From an uncultured Pseudomonadota bacterium (GTDB taxonomy: Bacteria > Vulcanimicrobiota > Vulcanimicrobiia > Eremiobacterales > Eremiobacteraceae), in assembly GCA_963736005.1 (NCBI GenBank), contig CAVTNB010000001.1, positions 704,001 to 768,000 of the forward strand: a stretch of DNA of 64,000 nucleotides, written 5' to 3'. A program made the position numbers and the translations under genes. This document shows positions 27,814-35,205 of the stretch, in pieces; positions within the stretch are counted from its first letter, which is position 1, and each line of letters begins with the position of its first letter. The notes under the pieces were generated by a model. It was not told the origin of the DNA. It did no database searches and saw only the letters and a list, made by a program, of their open reading frames with translations.

Positions 27814-28986
27814 CAATCGAGGCGGCTCCAAGTCCGCCGGCTCCAGTCGAATCATGTATTTGCGACCAACCTCGTACGCTTCGGTCTGCGTGTCAACCAA
27901 GCGAACGCGTACCCGGCCGGTTGTGGGGTCGAGCATCTCCTGCAGGGTCACGGGCGTAACCTTGCCACCACGGAGAGCGACCATAGCGCCCGACCCACCG
28001 GAGAGCAAGTATCTGACGGCCCCATACCCCAGCGTTCGCGCGTACTCGACATCGAACGCGACAGGCTTTGCGCATCGCAATTCATAGCCGATGTCTTTGG
28101 CGACGATCGTCACGTCCAAGGTGAGCGCTTTGAGCGCGGCCGTCAGCGAGCGTTTCAGCAGATCTCCTAGATCAACGTCCGTGAGACGAACGTTGCCGTA
28201 GGCGTCGCGTCCGGCGCTTTCCAGCGATCCGAGCTCTGCGGGATCGAGTCGTTCGGCAAGCCCTTCCGCGATGACGGCTACTCCGTGATTGTGATCGGAA
28301 ACTCGGCGCTTGATGATGCTGCCAACGATGGTGTCGGTCACGATGCTCAGTGGCACCGTGCCCGCAGGATACTCTTCGGGTATCACAGCCAGCGTCGCGC
28401 CAGCTGCTTTGGCGATGCCGAGCGCCAAGGCGCCGGATTTTCTACCCATCGTGATGACGAGGTACCAGCGTGTGGTGGTGCGAGCATCTTCCATCAAGCT
28501 TTCGACAATGTTCGTTCCCACCGCGCGAGCCGTCTCGAAACCAAACGTCGGCATGTTGTCGGGCAAGGGCAAATCGTTGTCGATTGTCTTGGGGACAGTG
28601 GCAACGTGAATCGAGCCAGCGGCACGTTCGGCGATACGCGCAGCCCCAAAAGTCGTATCGTCGCCACCAATGCACAACAAATGCGTGATGCCAAGGGTCC
28701 GCAATGCGCGCACGGCATTATCCAGCGAGCGTTCGTCCTTGGCCGGGTTGGTGCGCGACGTTCGAAGAATCGACCCGCCCAGCCAGTGGATGCGGCTGAC
28801 CTCTTCAATGGAAACCTCTGCGCTGTGCGTTGCATCGCCTAAAACAAGCCACTGGTAGCCGTCGTAGATCCCGATGACGCGGCAACCTTCGTTGATCGCC
28901 TCGATGGTCGCCGAAGCGATAACGCCATTGATTCCGGGTGCCGGCCCGCCTCCAACAAGAATACCAAGCGTCGGCTTGTTCGTCAT
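27736..28986 (-). CDS. pfp: Pyrophosphate-dependent phosphofructokinase
   Basis: GGPAPG, GGDDT (Asp indicates PPi type), PKTIDND, MGR, GYELRC; start ATG 28986 overlaps the upstream stop. Confidence 0.9.
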   Translation of the reverse strand: MTNKPTLGILVGGGPAPGINGVIASATIEAINEGCRVIGIYDGYQWLVLGDATHSAEVSIEEVSRIHWLGGSILRTSRTNPAKDERSLDNAVRALRTLGITHLLCIGGDDTTFGAARIAERAAGSIHVATVPKTIDNDLPLPDNMPTFGFETARAVGTNIVESLMEDARTTTRWYLVITMGRKSGALALGIAKAAGATLAVIPEEYPAGTVPLSIVTDTIVGSIIKRRVSDHNHGVAVIAEGLAERLDPAELGSLESAGRDAYGNVRLTDVDLGDLLKRSLTAALKALTLDVTIVAKDIGYELRCAKPVAFDVEYARTLGYGAVRYLLSGGSGAMVALRGGKVTPVTLQEMLDPTTGRVRVRLVDTQTEAYEVGRKYMIRLEPADLEPPRLLALAAAARLEPSEFQKRFEPVVNGR

Positions 28987-29558
28987 TGCGGCTCTGGCGC
29001 GCGCACTTGCGCTGCTCTTAATTGGGCCATCCGCGGCGTGTTCGCGGGATAGTTTCCATCCGCATGCCGATCCAGCCATAACCGGGAGCGTGCTGCAGCG
29101 TATTCGAAATTCTCGAACGACGATTCACCATAGCGCTCCCGAACCGTCATGACGACCGGTTCGAGCAGATCCCAGAAACCAAGCATCTGCGGCGCTGCGA
29201 CATCGAGCCACGAGCGCTCATCGATGAGGCCATATTTTATAAACAAGCCGATTTGCTCCCAGAAGTCGGCGACCGCAAATTCGTCGTGCTGAGTCCGAGA
29301 GATCGGCCCCTTTGCGAGGTGCGCGGCAAGCTCGGCGAGGAAGCTCGGCTCCTTGAGTCGCTCTTGCAACTCACCGCGCACATAGGAAAGATGCTCTTGC
29401 AGCGGCGCTTGGTTCCATAACTCCATTAAGGTCAGCAGCGCGTTGAGCTCGTTGCTCGCGCGCAGATGACGCAGCTGAATGAGCGCCGCAATGGCAGTCG
29501 CGCCAATGACCACAAATGTGCCGCCAGCGAAAATGCTGCTCAAAACCTCTGGTGACAT
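28983..29558 (-). CDS. DUF4760-like membrane-anchored protein (paralog 3)
   Basis: N-terminal TM, AALIQLRHLRASN, FWEQIG..GLIDE, FENFEY...W...H..GNYP shared with its neighbours. Confidence 0.7.
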   Translation of the reverse strand: MSPEVLSSIFAGGTFVVIGATAIAALIQLRHLRASNELNALLTLMELWNQAPLQEHLSYVRGELQERLKEPSFLAELAAHLAKGPISRTQHDEFAVADFWEQIGLFIKYGLIDERSWLDVAAPQMLGFWDLLEPVVMTVRERYGESSFENFEYAAARSRLWLDRHADGNYPANTPRMAQLRAAQVRAPEPQ

Positions 29559-29560
29559 CG

Positions 29561-30121
29561 TCAAAGCTCTGGATCCGCCGGAAACGGATCGACGACCGGA
29601 AGGTGTGGGGTGTTTCTTGGAAACAGGCCGTCCGGGTGCTTTGATTCCCAAATCATGGCGCGCGAGACGAGATACTCAAAGTTGTCGTATGCCTGCGGGC
29701 CACGTTTGCGGCGAATGATCGCAACGACGGGCATGAGTTTCTGCCAAGCCCTGATTGCCGTCGGACCTCCCGATTCCATCACCGTCTCGTCAGCAATGTA
29801 GCCGAGTTTGAGCATGCCTCCGAGCGACTCCCAAAAATCTAGATACTGGACTTCGGGGTGCGCGAGCCTATCGATGATAGGACTGCCCAGCTCCGCTCGA
29901 TAGGTTGGGTCGATCAGCTTGCGGTCCAATTCCCCACTGAACACATAGTTTGCGTGTTCGCGAGCTTGCGGGCTCGACCACTTGTCCATGAAGCCGAGAA
30001 AACCGCTGATGGCGTTGCCTGCACGCATGTGGCGCAATTGAAAGACGGCTGCGATCGCCGATGCTGCGATAACGATCATCGTGACGAAGGTCGAAATCGC
30101 GGAGAGTTCATCCCACTTCAT
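29561..30121 (-). CDS. DUF4760-like membrane-anchored protein (paralog 2)
   Basis: Same motif set: QLRHMRAGN, FWESLG, YDNFEYL, HPDGLFP. Confidence 0.7.
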   Translation of the reverse strand: MKWDELSAISTFVTMIVIAASAIAAVFQLRHMRAGNAISGFLGFMDKWSSPQAREHANYVFSGELDRKLIDPTYRAELGSPIIDRLAHPEVQYLDFWESLGGMLKLGYIADETVMESGGPTAIRAWQKLMPVVAIIRRKRGPQAYDNFEYLVSRAMIWESKHPDGLFPRNTPHLPVVDPFPADPEL

Positions 30122-30660
30122 AGGTTGCTCTTAGCATCGACGTGCATGCGTGGAGTACCTTTTGGATAATTACCAACAGGATGTTTCCCTATCCAGACTT
30201 GCGCCCGAGCTGCGAGATATTCGAAGTTTTCGAAGACAAACGGTCGATTCCGACGCACCAGCATCACCACAGGCTCCAAGAGCCGCCAGTACAGCCTCAC
30301 ATTATACCAATGAGCGCGGAGAAACAGCTCCTCGTCGATGAGGCCACCGCGAGTATACGATCCGATCTCTTCATACATCTCGCACAGATGGAGTTCGGGG
30401 TGTTCCCGACGATCGACGGGAATTTTTTCCAAACCAGCACGAAAGCTTCCGCTTTCCAGATGAGACGGCAAATCCTGGCGCACGTAGTTGATGAGTTCGA
30501 GCACCTGGGGCTGCTGAAACAGCTGGAGGACCGAGAGGAGCCCAGGCAGTTGGTTGCTGTGACGGATGTGACGCAACTGAACGAGTGCGGCAAGAGCGCT
30601 GACCGTTACGACGACAAACGTTCCCAGCGTGCCCACGGCGATCCATGACTCAGGGGACAT
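30118..30660 (-). CDS. DUF4760-like membrane-anchored protein (paralog 1)
   Basis: Same motif set: QLRHIRHSN, YEEIG..GLIDE, FENFEYL, HPVGNYP; start ATG 30660. Confidence 0.7.
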   Translation of the reverse strand: MSPESWIAVGTLGTFVVVTVSALAALVQLRHIRHSNQLPGLLSVLQLFQQPQVLELINYVRQDLPSHLESGSFRAGLEKIPVDRREHPELHLCEMYEEIGSYTRGGLIDEELFLRAHWYNVRLYWRLLEPVVMLVRRNRPFVFENFEYLAARAQVWIGKHPVGNYPKGTPRMHVDAKSNL

Positions 30661-30665
30661 AGCGA

Positions 30666-30727
30666 GGGGCGATTTTCCAATCGCCCCATCGATAACCTTG
30701 ACGAAGGGGCGATTTTTCAATCGCCCC
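30666..30727. repeat. Two family-A REP palindromes
   Basis: GGGGCGATTTTCCAATCGCCCC (30666-30687) and GGGGCGATTTTTCAATCGCCCC (30706-30727) after the clpC stop. Confidence 0.9.
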
Positions 30728-30734
30728 GGCGGCA

Positions 30735-33229
30735 CTAGGAACCGGTCGGTTGAGGGGCCGGCGGCTTGAGCGGCTCGCCGATCTTGCGAAAAACCGACTT
30801 GCCGTCTTCGACATCCATCTGGATGTGATCGCCCACCTTGAAAGTGCCTCGCAGCAGCTCTTCGGAGAGCGGGTCCTCAACCAGACGTTGAATGGCTCGG
30901 CGCAGCGGGCGCGCGCCAAACTGGGGATCCCAGCCTTCCTTGGCGATGAACTCCTTTGCGGCTTCGGTGGCCTCGAGCGCCACGCGCTGGTTCTCCAGCT
31001 CCTTGACGACCTTGGCCAGCTCGAGAGCGACGATTTGCTTGATTTCGTCGAGGTCGAGCGAATGAAAGACAACGACTTCGTCGATGCGGTTAAGAAATTC
31101 TGGCCGGAAGAGATGCTTGACTTCCTCCAGGATTTTGTTCTTCATCCGCTCGTAACGAATGGCCGTCGAACCCTCTTCCTTGATCGAACGGAAGCCGATT
31201 TCGGCTGCCTTGACCATCCCCATGGTGCCTACGTTGCTCGTCATGATGATGAGGCTGTGCTTGAAATCGACCACGCGACCTTGCGAATCGGTCAGGCGCC
31301 CATCTTCAAGAACCTGCAGCAGCAAGTTGAAGACGTCTGGATGAGCCTTCTCGATCTCATCAAGCAGCACCACGGCGTACGGACGCCGACGGACCGCTTC
31401 TGTGAGCTGGCCACCCTCTTCGTATCCGACGTATCCTGGCGGTGCGCCGACCAGCCGCGAGACCGAATATTTCTCCATATACTCGGACATGTCGATACGA
31501 ACCATCGACGTCGACATCGTCGAAGAGAAATTCCGCGAGCGTTCGCGCGAGTTCTGTCTTGCCAACGCCCGTCGGGCCCAGAAATATGAAGGAACCGATA
31601 GGCCGCATGGGGCTCTTGAGCCCGGCACGCGCTCTTCGAATCGCCCGCGTGATGACCTTGATCGCCTCGTCTTGGCCAACGATGCGCTTGTGCAGCGCCC
31701 CCTCCATGTTGAGCAGCTTGAGGGTCTCTTCTTCTTTGAGCTTGCTCACCGGAATGCGCGTCCAGGTTGAGACGATGTGTGCGATTTCTTCCGGGCCGAC
31801 GGTATTGGTCGTGGTCGCCTTTGACGTTGCGCTTCTCGCGCCACTCTTCTTCCATCTGCGTCTTGCTGAGCGCGCAACTTTTCTTCGCGGTCGCGGATTT
31901 GCGCAGCTTTCTCGAACTCTTGCGCCTTGATAACCGCTTCTTTCTCGGTGCTGCACTTTGCGGATTTCGGTTTCGACTTCACGGATTTCCGGAGGCAGTG
32001 AGGTCGATTGCAGCCGCACGCGTGAGGCGGCTTCGTCCATGAGATCCACTGCCTTATCCGGCAAGAAGCGATCCGTGATGTAGCGATCGCTGAGACGAGC
32101 CGCTGCGTCGAGCGCCTCGTCGCTGATCTTCACCCGATGATGTGCTTCGTAGCGGTCGCGCAGACCCTTGAGGATTTCGATGGTCTCCTCGACCGATGGG
32201 CTCGCCGACCATGATCGACTGAAAGCGGCGCTCCAGCGCCGAGTCTTTTTCGATGTGCTTGCGAAACTCGTTGAGCGTGGTGGCGCCGATGCATTGCAGT
32301 TCGCCTCGCGCCAGTGCCGGCTTGATGATGTTGCTCGCGTCAATTGCGCCCTCGGCGGCGCCCGCGCCGACGAGGGTGTGCAGTTCGTCGATGAAGAGAA
32401 TGATCTCGCCGCAAGCGCCACGGATTTCATCCATGACGCGCTTCATGCGCTCCTCGAACTCGCCGCGATATTTGGTGCCCGCGACGAGGCCGGCAAGGTC
32501 GAGTGTGATGACGCGTTTGTCGCGCAAAGGCTCGGGCACATCGCCACTGATAACGCGCTGCGCCAAACCCTCTGCAATGGCGGTCTTGCCGACGCCGGGC
32601 TCGCCGATGAGTGCCGGGATTGTTCTTCGTTCGCCGCGAGAGGATCTGGATGACCCGCTCGATCTCGGTGTTGCGACCGATGACGGGATCAAGTTTGCTC
32701 TCGCGAGCAAGTTGGGTAAGATCGCGGCCGTAGGCGTCGAGCGTCGGCGTTTTGCTCTTGCCTTTGCTCGTGCTTTGTACTTGTGTTTCCGCTCCGAGCA
32801 GCGAGGTAGTCTGGACGCGTACCTTCGCAGGATCGACGCCCAGGTTCGTGAGGACGCGGGCAGCGACGCCTTCGCCTTCGCGAATGAGGCCGAGCAGCAG
32901 GTGCTCGGTGCCGATGTAGTTATGGTTGAGCTGACGCGCCTCTTCGAAAGCGAGTTCGATGACGCGCTTGGCTCGCGGGGTGAACACCATCTCCTGCTGG
33001 ACGGTCTGCCCGCCTCGACCGACGATCGCTTCAACTTCGGCGCGAACCTTCGCCAGGTTGACTCCTAGAGTTTCCAACACTTTGGCGGCCAGGCTCTCGC
33101 CTTCGCTGATGATGCCGAGCAGGATGTGTTCCGTCCCGATGTAGTTGTTACCGAGCCGCTGCGCTTCTTCTTGTGCCAGCACGATTGACTGCGGCGCGCA
33201 CGCTCGGTGAACGGTTCCCACATGGACAT
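30735..33229 (-). pseudogene. clpC: ATP-dependent Clp protease ATP-binding subunit ClpC with about 6 frameshifts (likely assembly error)
   Basis: [12 protein letters not shown] start behind AAGGAG; Clp-N repeats (YIGTEH), [29 protein letters not shown] and LLDEIEKAH spread over several frames. Confidence 0.93.
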
Positions 33230-33403
33230 TGTTACTTTGACTCCTTGGGCGCGCTACGGGACATCGTGCCCGATTGACCGCCTAGTTGGCGGCCCTTACT
33301 CCCGCTTGTATGTTCGACAGCTAGCTCTTGTTCTTCTTTTCCCTCTTTTGTGATTAACGTTGCAGGGTGCGCTTCCGGTTCACAGTTTCATTATCGGCAA
33401 AGG

Positions 33404-33583
33404 AAAAGCCTCAAGGATCACGGTCCGTGCTGTACTGGTGCCCGATATTCTCAGGATGACGTATCGGCTTTCGGTCGATTGGTAGTGCCAATCGCTACGC
33501 CCGGATTGCACAATCCGGATGCGGGTTCGTCGCTCGACCCGCTCGCCGATCAGTACGCCTTGGAGCGTGGCCGCTTGAGGCCT
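33404..33583 (-). ncRNA. Candidate ~180-nt structured non-coding RNA (family unassigned; 6S-like size)
   Basis: The two ends pair (GCCTCAAG/CTTGAGGC); nested stems GTACTG/CAGTAC, ATCGGC/GCCGAT, GGTCGA/TCGACC and CCGGATTG/CAATCCGG; begins right at a sigma70 promoter and ends in a U-run. Confidence 0.7.
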
Positions 33584-33589
33584 ACCGCG

Positions 33590-33618
33590 ATAATACTTGC
33601 GACCTCGCTGCGTGTCAA
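33590..33618 (-). promoter_or_regulatory. Sigma70-type promoter
   Basis: TTGACA (33618-33613) - 17 nt - TATTAT (33595-33590) on the minus strand. Confidence 0.8.
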
Positions 33619-33669
33619 GTCAATTGCCGGATTCGTTTCGAAACAAAACGAAGGGAGCAAGCGACGCCA

Positions 33670-35205
33670 ATGTCCTCTACACAATCTTCCCAGCCAAGGC
33701 CGCAACATCGCGTCGCAATTGCAATTGGGTCCAATCTTGGAGACCGTCAGGGCAATGTGGGCGCTGCTATCCACAGGCTGCGCTCGTACGTGACGATCGA
33801 TCGTCTTTCGTCCACGTATGAAACAAAGCCGGTCGGCTTTACGGAGCAACCTGACTTCCTCAACCTCGCGTGCACCGGATGGACGACCTTGGCGCCTCAG
33901 CGGCTGCGGGATGCAATGGCGAAGATCGAGCGCCAAATCGGGCGCCGGATCAGCGTGCCTTTGGGGCCGCGCGCGATCGATTTGGATCTTTTGCTCTATG
34001 ATGACGTCATATCGAGCGACCAAAGTTGTACAATTCCGCACCCTGGATTGGCCACGCGAGCATTTGTTCTCGTCCCCCTAGCGGAGATCGCACCCGAACT
34101 TGTCGATCCGCGATCCGGAAAAACAATCGGTGAACTTGCTGCAACCATCGACCGGTCTGGTGTGACGATTCGCGAAGGCGGTCTTTTGACTCGCACGCGA
34201 CGCGACGTCCAAGAATCCAGACCCCAAGTACCTCTGGCGCTCAATCGAGTGGGCATAACCGGCGTCAAGACGCTGATCAACCTGGAGAACGATGCTATCG
34301 GAGGGCAAGCAAGCTTCGCGACTCTCGATATCTACGCTGATTTGGACGCGGGCCACAGCGGCGTGCACATGTCGCGTTTCTCGCAGGATCTCGAGGATGC
34401 GCTCGCAGACCTGCGCCTGGAACGCTTCGGCATTGATGGGCTTGCACTGGCCCTCGCGCAACGCGTGGTGGAAAGTCAGAATGCGGAGCGGGCTGAGGTC
34501 CACTTGACCGCCCCGGTTGCCCTCGAGCGCTTCACCCCGGTGAGCGCGCTTCGCACGCGTGAGTTCTATACGGCGATCGGGCGCGCGGCAGTTACTCGTC
34601 GCTTTTCACGCCGGCTCCTTGGCGTCGAAGCCGAAGGTATGACTGCCTGTCCCTGCGCGCAGGCGATGGTTGCCGACTACTCACGCGAGCGGCTCCTCGC
34701 TGAGGGTTTCTCTGAGGAGCAAGTGGCCAAGATCTTGGCGGCCATCCCAGTTGCGACGCACAACCAGCGCGGCGTCGGAAGGCTCCTTGTTGGTTCCGAG
34801 CGGCCCGTTTCGCTCGCGCAGCTCGTTGAAATTGTCGAGCAATCGATGTCTTCAGAAACGTATGATTTGCTCAAGCGCCCGGACGAGTTGTTCGTCGTCA
34901 ACAAGGCACATCAGTCGCCGCGCTTTGTCGAAGATGTCGTGCGCGAGATGCTTCGCTATGTGAACGACGCGCTTGTCGACTTTCCCGGCGACACCTTTGT
35001 CTTCGCCCGACAGATCAATTTCGAGAGCATTCACAAGCACGATGCCGTGGCCGAGTCTTGTTGCACGCTTGACGAACTGCGCCGCGAGCTTCGCGGCCAC
35101 ACCGACGTTGGGCACACGAGCCTCGAGCAATGGATGCATGGTGACGCCAAAGGTCTTGGGGCGACTTTCCAAGCGCCCCCTACAGATTTCGAGAAATCTC
35201 TATGA
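33670..35205 (+). CDS. folK: Fusion of HPPK (FolK) and GTP cyclohydrolase of the FolE2/MptA family
   Basis: GSNLGDR, QPDFLN, GPRAIDLDLL, IPHP, RAFVLVPL (FolK); then GVHMSRF, GMTACPCAQ, THNQRG, LLKRPDE, PRFVEDVVR, ESIHKHD. Confidence 0.92.
   Translation: MSSTQSSQPRPQHRVAIAIGSNLGDRQGNVGAAIHRLRSYVTIDRLSSTYETKPVGFTEQPDFLNLACTGWTTLAPQRLRDAMAKIERQIGRRISVPLGPRAIDLDLLLYDDVISSDQSCTIPHPGLATRAFVLVPLAEIAPELVDPRSGKTIGELAATIDRSGVTIREGGLLTRTRRDVQESRPQVPLALNRVGITGVKTLINLENDAIGGQASFATLDIYADLDAGHSGVHMSRFSQDLEDALADLRLERFGIDGLALALAQRVVESQNAERAEVHLTAPVALERFTPVSALRTREFYTAIGRAAVTRRFSRRLLGVEAEGMTACPCAQAMVADYSRERLLAEGFSEEQVAKILAAIPVATHNQRGVGRLLVGSERPVSLAQLVEIVEQSMSSETYDLLKRPDELFVVNKAHQSPRFVEDVVREMLRYVNDALVDFPGDTFVFARQINFESIHKHDAVAESCCTLDELRRELRGHTDVGHTSLEQWMHGDAKGLGATFQAPPTDFEKSL

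Follow-up and report, generated by a model that had tools for sequence, protein, structure and literature searches.

A predicted RNA gene between clpC and folK

The window analyzed here is a stretch of 64,000 nucleotides (nt) from an uncultured member of the family Eremiobacteraceae (assembly GCA_963736005.1, 6 contigs, 84% complete; contig CAVTNB010000001.1, positions 704,001 to 768,000 of the forward strand), and all positions given below are those of the window. Between a divergent folK gene, which encodes an HPPK-FolE2 fusion (33670-35205, plus strand), and the gene for a ClpC-type ATPase lies a block of ∼180 nt that is conserved on the minus strand from 33583 to about 33400. An earlier note on this DNA, made from its letters alone, had proposed an unannotated structured RNA of about this size between clpC and folK, and our analysis bears this out: the region folds far better than shuffled sequence, and most of its helices show compensatory changes among relatives.

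The promoter (33618-33590) lies 5-6 nt before the block. The 5′ start reads A33583, G, then G-CCUCAAG, 6 nt past TATTAT. Close to this start, GCCUCAAG (33581-33574) is complementary to CUUGAGGC (33415-33408), which is followed on the minus strand by UUUUCCUUU at 33407-33399. The folding energy of the 191-nt stretch is -79.9 kcal/mol, compared with -63.0 ± 4.7 kcal/mol in dinucleotide shuffles (z = -3.59), and none of 200 such shuffles folds as well. clpC begins 181 nt downstream on the same strand. As the analysis shows, the predicted transcript is read on the minus strand and has a promoter of its own, of the sigma70 type and close to consensus, which puts +1 at about 33583.

Conserved fold and covariation

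Homologs of the block were compared in two alignments, one of 25 sequences (A1) and one of 47 distinct sequences fitted to the model (A3). RNAalifold predicted 48 pairs on the 25 sequences, with compensatory changes in 9; refinement by hand gave a structure of 52 pairs in eight helices, P1 to P8 (Table 1). In A1, 95.3% of the cells are paired and 13 pairs have changes on both sides, compared with 7.3 ± 1.4 after shuffling; the corresponding values for A3 are 95.7% and 15 pairs, compared with 9.4 ± 1.3. When the partners were slid by 1-3 columns, only 3-6 pairs with compensatory changes were counted in A1 and 2-7 in A3.

The fold is a rod (P1 to P3) with conserved internal loops and a bulged A, and P3 stacks directly on P4. 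Hairpin P8 branches off on the 3′ side, and P4 closes a four-way junction with the hairpins P5, P6, and P7. Without exception, the 25 sequences keep the joining strands GA, AU, GCGUAG, and (A)CCGAAA unchanged, whereas the hairpin loops are variable. Compensatory changes are found in three pairs of P2 (94.8% of cells paired) and in five pairs of P3 (97.6%), whose 3′ strands together hold the conserved stretch CAGUACAGCA.GGACCG. P1 changes only from U-A to U-G and from A-U to G-U, with no covariation; the positions just before and after it (columns 1 and 193 of A3) form an extra pair in 96% of the sequences. P4 is nearly invariant, its only changes being from C-G to U-G in 3 of the 47 sequences. 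Among the hairpins, P5 has a loop that differs in length and sequence among homologs, and P6 frequently has A-C mismatches at two positions and keeps U-U-G...A-A near its loop. The pairing of P8 in the alignment is only 80%, because the sequence, length, and register of this hairpin vary.

Mutual information points to a possible base triple in which the fifth pair of P5 would contact a base of the strand joining P7 to P4. The candidate states are G-C with G in 35 sequences, A-A with A in 7, and U-A with A in 3. With only 2-3 events behind it, this triple is a lead, not a finding.

The RNA strand was fixed as minus because of the G-U pairs and the much lower scores of the covariance model (R1) on the reverse strand: the model scores 199.5 bits on the RNA strand in the window and at most 34 bits on the opposite strand of homologous loci. 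Protein coding was rejected for both strands, since no frame is open in more than 24 of the 47 sequences and the lengths (178-190 nt) differ by non-multiples of three.

The earlier note had drawn two mutually exclusive folds, a long irregular rod and an arrangement of four hairpins. Much of each is kept in relatives, namely, CACG/CGUG, UCC/GGA, GUACUG/CAGUAC, and AUCGGC/GCCGAU of the rod and GCGGGU/ACCCGC, CCGGAUU/AAUCCGG, and GAUUGG/CCAAUC of the four hairpins, and these helices show compensatory changes where they vary. One helix of each fold, GGUCGA/UCGACC and CCGAUA/UAUCGG, is not kept; the two show no compensatory changes, and 82.5% of their cells are paired, compared with 81.3% in shuffles. 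Thus, the alternative helices do not covary, and the proposed pair of exclusive states is not supported. What had been taken for a one-sided bulge of 25 nt is in fact the conserved hairpin P8 at 33455-33441, so that the true fold combines the two alternatives, with no switching. The closing pairing of the two ends, followed by a U-run, was recognized correctly, as was the promoter TTGACA-17-TATTAT with +1 near 33583.

Promoter, termination, and the spacer to clpC

The promoter of the window agrees with the consensus at 11 of 12 positions and is the sole match in 32900-34000, where 0.4 matches are expected from shuffles. Both hexamers are conserved (Table 1), and in all 44 distinct upstream sequences the spacer is 17-18 nt long and the promoter ends 5-6 nt before model position 1.

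Behind the RNA, the tails differ between clades. A U-run directly after P1 occurs in 26 of 46 distinct downstream tails, whereas 14 of the 46, from other genera, have a separate perfect G+C-rich hairpin with a U-run 19-45 nt behind P1. The two terminator types never occur together (0/46), and six tails have neither by the strict rule, three of them with imperfect hairpins recognized by eye. This either/or pattern across clades suggests that ending transcription behind the RNA is a selected feature and, in the clade of the window, that P1 itself is the terminator stem.

The spacer between the RNA and clpC is 124 to 284 nt long and otherwise unconserved apart from promoter-like boxes. In most relatives, these boxes form the bipartite motif GGAAGC-N15-16-GTCGAA upstream of clpC, and the motif is kept across all genera of the family. 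Of 25 genomes, 24 have the GTCGAA box, upstream of the clpC start at a distance of 29-92 nt (in most cases 81-92 nt); the remaining genome has GGCGAA at the corresponding place, as found with a looser motif script. The arrangement recalls promoters of the extracytoplasmic function (ECF) type of sigma factors, and the motif is probably a clpC promoter for an alternative, ECF-like sigma factor. CtsR was considered as the reader of the GTCGAA box and rejected, as it was found in none of the 41 genomes searched.

Another motif lies just behind the U-run of the RNA (33356-33398, minus strand), where the window reads GCCGAUAAU, then AUGAACC-N16/17-CGUUA. The GAACC-N15-17-CGTT motif, a possible second promoter, was found in three genera (10 of 25 genomes). 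GCCGATR occurs in 15 of the 25, and the GCCGAU behind the U-run repeats the 3′ strand of P4.

Distribution of the RNA

The window's own genome has one copy of the RNA. When 40 relatives were searched at the DNA level, all 24 that belong to the same family proved to have it, with identities of 73-98%. The matched sequence (positions 57-245 of the 411-nt query) coincides with the predicted transcript, as alignment A1 also indicates, and neither the promoter spacer nor the upstream region nor most of the spacer to clpC can be aligned among relatives. The genome sets searched are samples, and absence means not found in those searched; the counts include three unpublished genomes (G008, G011, and G013), and dropping them alters no conclusion. 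In a sample of the class, the covariance model found the RNA in all 31 other Eremiobacteraceae genomes (32 of 32 with the window's own) and in none of the 116 and 3 genomes of the two other families. In a sample of the phylum, it was found in 9 of 9 Eremiobacteraceae genomes and in none of 141 genomes from 20 other families. Five complete or near-complete sister genomes, searched with looser filters, gave a best model score of 16.7 bits (E = 0.27), and no related RNA was found upstream of clpC or of folK-folE2 in the regions of the sister families that were examined. In one of the sister-family genomes (G030, locus L109), short tandem or inverted repeats with units like GAGCCUGUCGAAGGAU and CCUUCGACAAGCUCAGG fill the region upstream of clpC.

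When one genome per species was scanned with a search pattern, 40 loci were returned, of which 25 are full-length (152.8-199.9 bits). Most of these are labeled as metagenome-assembled genomes of Eremiobacterota, Vulcanimicrobiota, or Eremiobacteraceae, and a few are labeled otherwise. The other 15 loci, Streptomyces included, were rejected as chance matches, with at most 12 bits or no match at E ≤ 1. A scan of metagenomes gave 31 loci, 28 of them with the full-length RNA; the other three are not the RNA, and one of them, which matches the junction part alone at 15.3 bits, was treated as chance. Overall, the full-length loci of the two scans score 148-200 bits. In every locus compared, clpC follows the RNA and has the same orientation (25/25 and 33/33, together 58/58). 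As far as searched, the family is confined to Eremiobacteraceae (phylum Eremiobacterota/Vulcanimicrobiota).

Six of the Streptomyces records (L070, L081, L083, L087, L096, and L102) have in common a 53-nt exact-pattern match that scores 7.7-12 bits with the RNA model, and another (L103) has a 64-nt pattern match with no model match at E ≤ 1. These are probably a conserved coding stretch that fits the search pattern by chance.

Presence in RNA libraries

A search of sequencing runs returned 24 with part of the stretch, 15 of them recorded as RNA libraries, mostly from soil. Four soil metatranscriptome runs, from four studies, each have a contig wholly inside 33410-33580 with 0-1 differences. 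These Logan contigs are 156-171 nt long and cover 33412-33580, 33410-33567, 33413-33568, and 33424-33572; the mean word depth of the last is 279, and its sequence continues into sequencing adapter. They show that the body of the RNA is present in RNA libraries, and the agreement of their ends across four studies is a weak hint at most at discrete ends. In these four runs, no contig lies over 33188-33396 or 33587-33700 and none joins the RNA to clpC, an uncovered stretch that carries no weight.

Comparison with annotated RNA families

No Rfam family (4227 searched) matches at its gathering score in the window, and none matches at E ≤ 10 on 33150-33750. On eight divergent homologous loci, Rfam matches nothing on the RNA; two matches at E values of 0.6-0.9 fall in the clpC coding sequence. 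The genome has a canonical 6S RNA elsewhere (G000:C1:1843467-1843652, 83.8 bits), and a 6S RNA is present in all 24 family relatives. Canonical signal recognition particle (SRP) RNA, RNase P RNA, and transfer-messenger RNA (tmRNA) are likewise found elsewhere in the genome (72.3, 260.7, and 166.7 bits, respectively), and these three identities were rejected for the locus, where Rfam finds no match. ARAGORN returned no genes for a tRNA-like reading of the RNA. The Ro/TROVE domain has no match in the window's own genome, at its 84% completeness; among the family genomes, it is present in 2 of 32 and in none of the 18 high-quality ones, and the RNA is present in all 32.

These results agree with the earlier note in that the RNA is not SRP RNA, RNase P RNA, tmRNA, or tRNA. 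The note had also named a search of Rfam and a collection of homologs as checks; no family matches, and the homologs reveal structural conservation, with 15 pairs showing compensatory changes on 47 sequences.

Feature coordinates and neighboring genes

The coordinates of the RNA gene and of the elements around it are collected in Table 1.

Table 1. Elements of the predicted RNA gene and of the adjoining clpC upstream region, in window positions
Feature	Position	Strand	Remarks
-35 hexamer TTGACA	33613-33618	minus	TTGACN kept in 44/44 distinct upstream sequences
-10 hexamer TATTAT	33590-33595	minus	TATNAT or TATTCT kept in 44/44 distinct upstream sequences
Predicted transcript	33399-33583	minus	+1 at A33583 or G33582; 3′ end inside U-run 33407-33399
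P1 5′ strand GCCUCAAG	33574-33581	minus	8 bp with 33415-33408; 100% of cells paired in 47 distinct sequences
P2 (33569-33562) and P3 (33558-33551) 5′ strands	33551-33569	minus	Covariation in A3
P4 5′ strand AUCGGC	33545-33550	minus	100% of cells paired; then invariant joining GA (33544-33543)
P5 hairpin GCGGGU...ACCCGC	33521-33542	minus	2 pairs with compensatory changes; then invariant joining AU (33520-33519)
P6 hairpin CCGGAUU GUGC AAUCCGG	33501-33518	minus	2 pairs with compensatory changes
Joining strand GCGUAG between P6 and P7	33495-33500	minus	Invariant columns in 25/25 sequences
P7 hairpin CGAUUGG CACUA CCAAUCG	33476-33494	minus	3 pairs with compensatory changes; loop variable
Joining strand ACCGAAA (33475-33469) and P4 3′ strand GCCGAU (33468-33463)	33463-33475	minus	CGAAAGCCGAU invariant in 25/25 sequences
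P8 side hairpin CCUGA GAAUA UCGGG	33441-33455	minus	Hairpin here in all clades
P3 (33437-33429, A33431 bulged) and P2 (33426-33419) 3′ strands	33419-33437	minus	Covariation in A3
P1 3′ strand CUUGAGGC	33408-33415	minus	Pairs with 33581-33574
U-run UUUUCCUUU directly behind P1	33399-33407	minus	Presumed termination site
Bipartite promoter-like motif for clpC	33313-33340	minus	AAAAGA-N16-GUCGAA in the window
clpC start codon	33227-33229	minus	Context; Shine-Dalgarno AAGGAG at 33246-33241

On the plus strand, HPPK and FolE2 are joined in one protein of 511 amino acids (aa), with full-length matches of 46-51% identity in sister families. In 2 of 5 cases there (judged by eye), the gene upstream of folK-folE2 lies on the same strand and is not divergent.

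The domains of the clpC product are Clp_N (twice), AAA, UVR, AAA_2, and ClpB_D2-small. In the window, clpC (30735-33229, minus strand) is split into at least four reading frames relative to the intact ortholog of a same-genus genome, with a 2-nt insertion at 33191-33190 and 1-nt insertions at 32619, 32196, 31952, 31867, and 31816. Compared with this ortholog, the first two fragments have 97-98% protein identity and the third has 72%, and the neighboring genes are intact. The frame breaks are probably due to consensus error in a very conserved gene rather than the mark of a pseudogene. A Clp ATPase paralog, 51% identical, is encoded at G000:C1:545912-547321. Just 5′ of the clpC Shine-Dalgarno sequence (33251-33285, minus strand) is a hairpin that reads (G)GGCACGAUGUCCCGUAGCGCGCCC in the window and GUGCG-N11-CGCAC in relatives. 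It is conserved in several genera and could affect clpC translation or mRNA stability.

Directly downstream of clpC (28983-30735, minus strand) are three tandem overlapping open reading frames of 222, 186, and 205 aa. They look like mutual paralogs, with an N-terminal hydrophobic segment and the motifs LRH(L/M/I)R and ...FENFEY....

Interpretation

We think it reasonably probable that the locus is a stand-alone gene for a ∼180-nt RNA of a new structured-RNA family, probably a binding platform that acts in trans. That the RNA has a gene of its own is supported by the promoter in 44 of 44 upstream sequences, the complementary terminators, and the promoter-like boxes that clpC has for itself. Its standing as a new small RNA (sRNA) is supported by its conservation and covariation, by a promoter and a terminator of its own, and by its presence in RNA libraries. 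Transcription would end behind P1 or at the separate hairpin, so that the RNA would be made as a discrete, probably abundant particle. This particle would act in trans, and its binding surface, for a protein or, less likely, for a small ligand, would be formed by the invariant junction together with the rod's conserved internal loops. The invariant P1 would protect both ends and, in the clades with a U-run, would also serve as the terminator stem. The fixed place beside clpC is only a hint at a role in proteostasis or stress.

Several points weigh against this reading of the locus as an autonomous, trans-acting RNA. The constant position upstream of clpC, in the same orientation, is what is expected of a cis-regulatory leader, and highly conserved junctions are typical of riboswitch aptamers. 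Terminated leaders likewise accumulate in RNA libraries, and the Logan contigs show neither the strand, nor the ends, nor the level of the RNA. At the U-run of the window, a simple terminator scan calls no intrinsic terminator; a U-run whose preceding helix closes about 165 nt does not make a canonical one. The covariation, too, has its limits: the A3 alignment was fitted to the model, the events cluster in few clades, and kin are not independent, while P1 and P4 never covary and are held together in the model by complementarity alone. The matching records are mostly metagenome-assembled genomes, and we know of no culture of Eremiobacteraceae. The trans-acting binding platform itself is pure inference on our part.

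The main rival, weakened by several of our results, is a cis-acting leader of clpC, that is, a riboswitch or a protein- or RNA-sensing attenuator in which the junction binds a signal, the formation of P1 terminates transcription at the U-run or at the downstream hairpin, and read-through feeds clpC. It would account well for the synteny and orientation with clpC in all 58 loci and for an aptamer-like, invariant multi-helix junction surrounded by covarying helices; since P1 is itself followed by a U-run in 26 of 46 tails, its stabilization could in principle decide termination there. In 14 of the 46 tails, however, a detached hairpin 19-45 nt behind P1 provides the terminator, the sequence between the two is variable, and by eye we find neither a conserved pairing between the RNA and this hairpin nor a conserved anti-terminator. 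The alternative helices of the earlier note, which might have formed a switch, are without covariation. Moreover, a conserved bipartite promoter-like motif belongs to clpC itself; it lies beyond the terminator, in a spacer that varies from 124 to 284 nt and is otherwise unconserved. The clpC genes of sister families are without an RNA element of this kind. We therefore regard a clpC leader as unlikely. The earlier note's proposal of a new two-state sRNA or attenuator survives in part: the new sRNA is supported, the two states are not, and the attenuator is weakened. Less probable still is a base-pairing sRNA that acts in trans, in which an invariant stretch, such as a P1 strand or a joining strand, pairs with target mRNAs. 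In its favor, the RNA resembles classical sRNAs in having a promoter and a terminator of its own as well as a U-run at the 3′ end, and the invariance of P1 and P4 without covariation could reflect a second pairing partner, but helices and junctions enclose nearly all of the invariant bases, and the hairpin loops, which usually provide the seed, are variable. The one such pairing seen, between the P1 3′ strand and the Shine-Dalgarno region of clpC, was dropped, as the complementarity of UCCUUGAG to the ribosome-binding region CUCAAGGA is present in some genera only (by eye) and lost in others.

The two known classes put forward in the earlier note fare worse than either of these. A divergent or second 6S-type RNA that sequesters RNA polymerase would fit the size of about 180 nt, the closing stem of the 5′ and 3′ ends, and the strong, constitutive-looking promoter. 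Against it stand the lack of a match to RF00013 even at E ≤ 10, a consensus fold that is branched, with three branch points and no large central bubble, an alternative rod helix without covariation, and the canonical 6S RNA that this genome and 24 of 24 relatives have elsewhere; we give the identification hardly any credence. A tRNA mimic of the Y RNA or YrlA kind, as the partner of a Ro-type protein, has in its favor the topology found here, in which the end stem carries a four-way junction with three hairpins. This second identification seems to us far-fetched, because TROVE/Ro is so rarely found in genomes that have the RNA (0/1 for its own genome, 2/32 in the family, and 0/18 among high-quality genomes, compared with 32/32 for the RNA), the variable loops of P5 and P7 leave no T-loop or D-loop signatures, and both ARAGORN and Rfam are negative.

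Beyond the stand-alone structured RNA that we favor, a bolder version can be put forward, though we hold it to be doubtful. The RNA might be the founding member of a new functional class, an abundant autonomous particle whose invariant four-way junction binds a stress-related small molecule or a Clp/proteostasis protein and which tunes the proteostasis of Eremiobacteraceae in trans, with its closing helix doubling as an unconventional intrinsic terminator.

Eremiobacterota (WPS-2) are a widespread soil phylum that is still largely uncultured, and we found nothing on an RNA motif upstream of clpC or on noncoding RNAs of Eremiobacterota in the literature searched, which was a limited collection of papers. 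The locus offers a clean case of a complex RNA with its own promoter and terminator, with covariation, and with presence in several soil RNA libraries that belongs to none of 4227 curated families. RNAs with such conserved multi-helix junctions have usually proved to bind a specific ligand or protein, and on that precedent this one marks an unknown piece of Eremiobacteraceae physiology. Across genera, the alternation between P1 with a U-run and a separate hairpin amounts to a natural experiment on the ability of a helix closing about 165 nt to terminate transcription intrinsically. The narrow distribution and the lack of cultures limit how soon such ideas can be tested.

Relation to known RNA systems

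Among known RNAs, 6S RNA (RF00013) resembles this one in that it is about 180 nt long, has its ends paired in a long closing stem, is driven by a strong promoter, and occurs once per genome; it differs at the top, where this RNA is branched instead of opening into a central bubble, and its covariance model remains unmatched at a locus whose genome has its 6S RNA elsewhere. Y RNAs and YrlA share the architecture of a stem formed by both ends that carries a multi-helix junction with three hairpins. Unlike them, this RNA is nearly without a Ro/TROVE partner in its family and has no conserved loops resembling T- or D-loops. From tRNA, it is set apart by long conserved joining strands of 6-8 nt, which tRNA does not have.

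The four-way-junction aptamers of the SAM-I type are comparable in their closing P1, invariant junction core, and variable hairpin loops, as well as in their place upstream of a gene in the same orientation with termination just behind P1. This RNA, in contrast, has no conserved expression platform, its terminator is detached in many clades, and clpC has a promoter-like motif of its own. To our knowledge, clpC is not a typical riboswitch-controlled gene, and no paper on a riboswitch-controlled clpC was found in the literature searched.

The IMES RNAs and the raiA motif RNA likewise combine a complex, covariation-supported fold and conserved junctions with presence in metatranscriptomes, and they, too, have their own transcription units, a narrow or environmental distribution, and no assigned function. 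The RNA described here differs from them in its arrangement of a rod, a side hairpin, and a four-way junction, in its restriction to one family of Eremiobacterota, and in its constant place beside clpC. Defining features tested for 6S RNA, YrlA, and the four-way-junction aptamers are lacking here, the aptamer-like invariant junction excepted. We place this RNA with the orphan structured RNAs that have come to light in environmental sequence.

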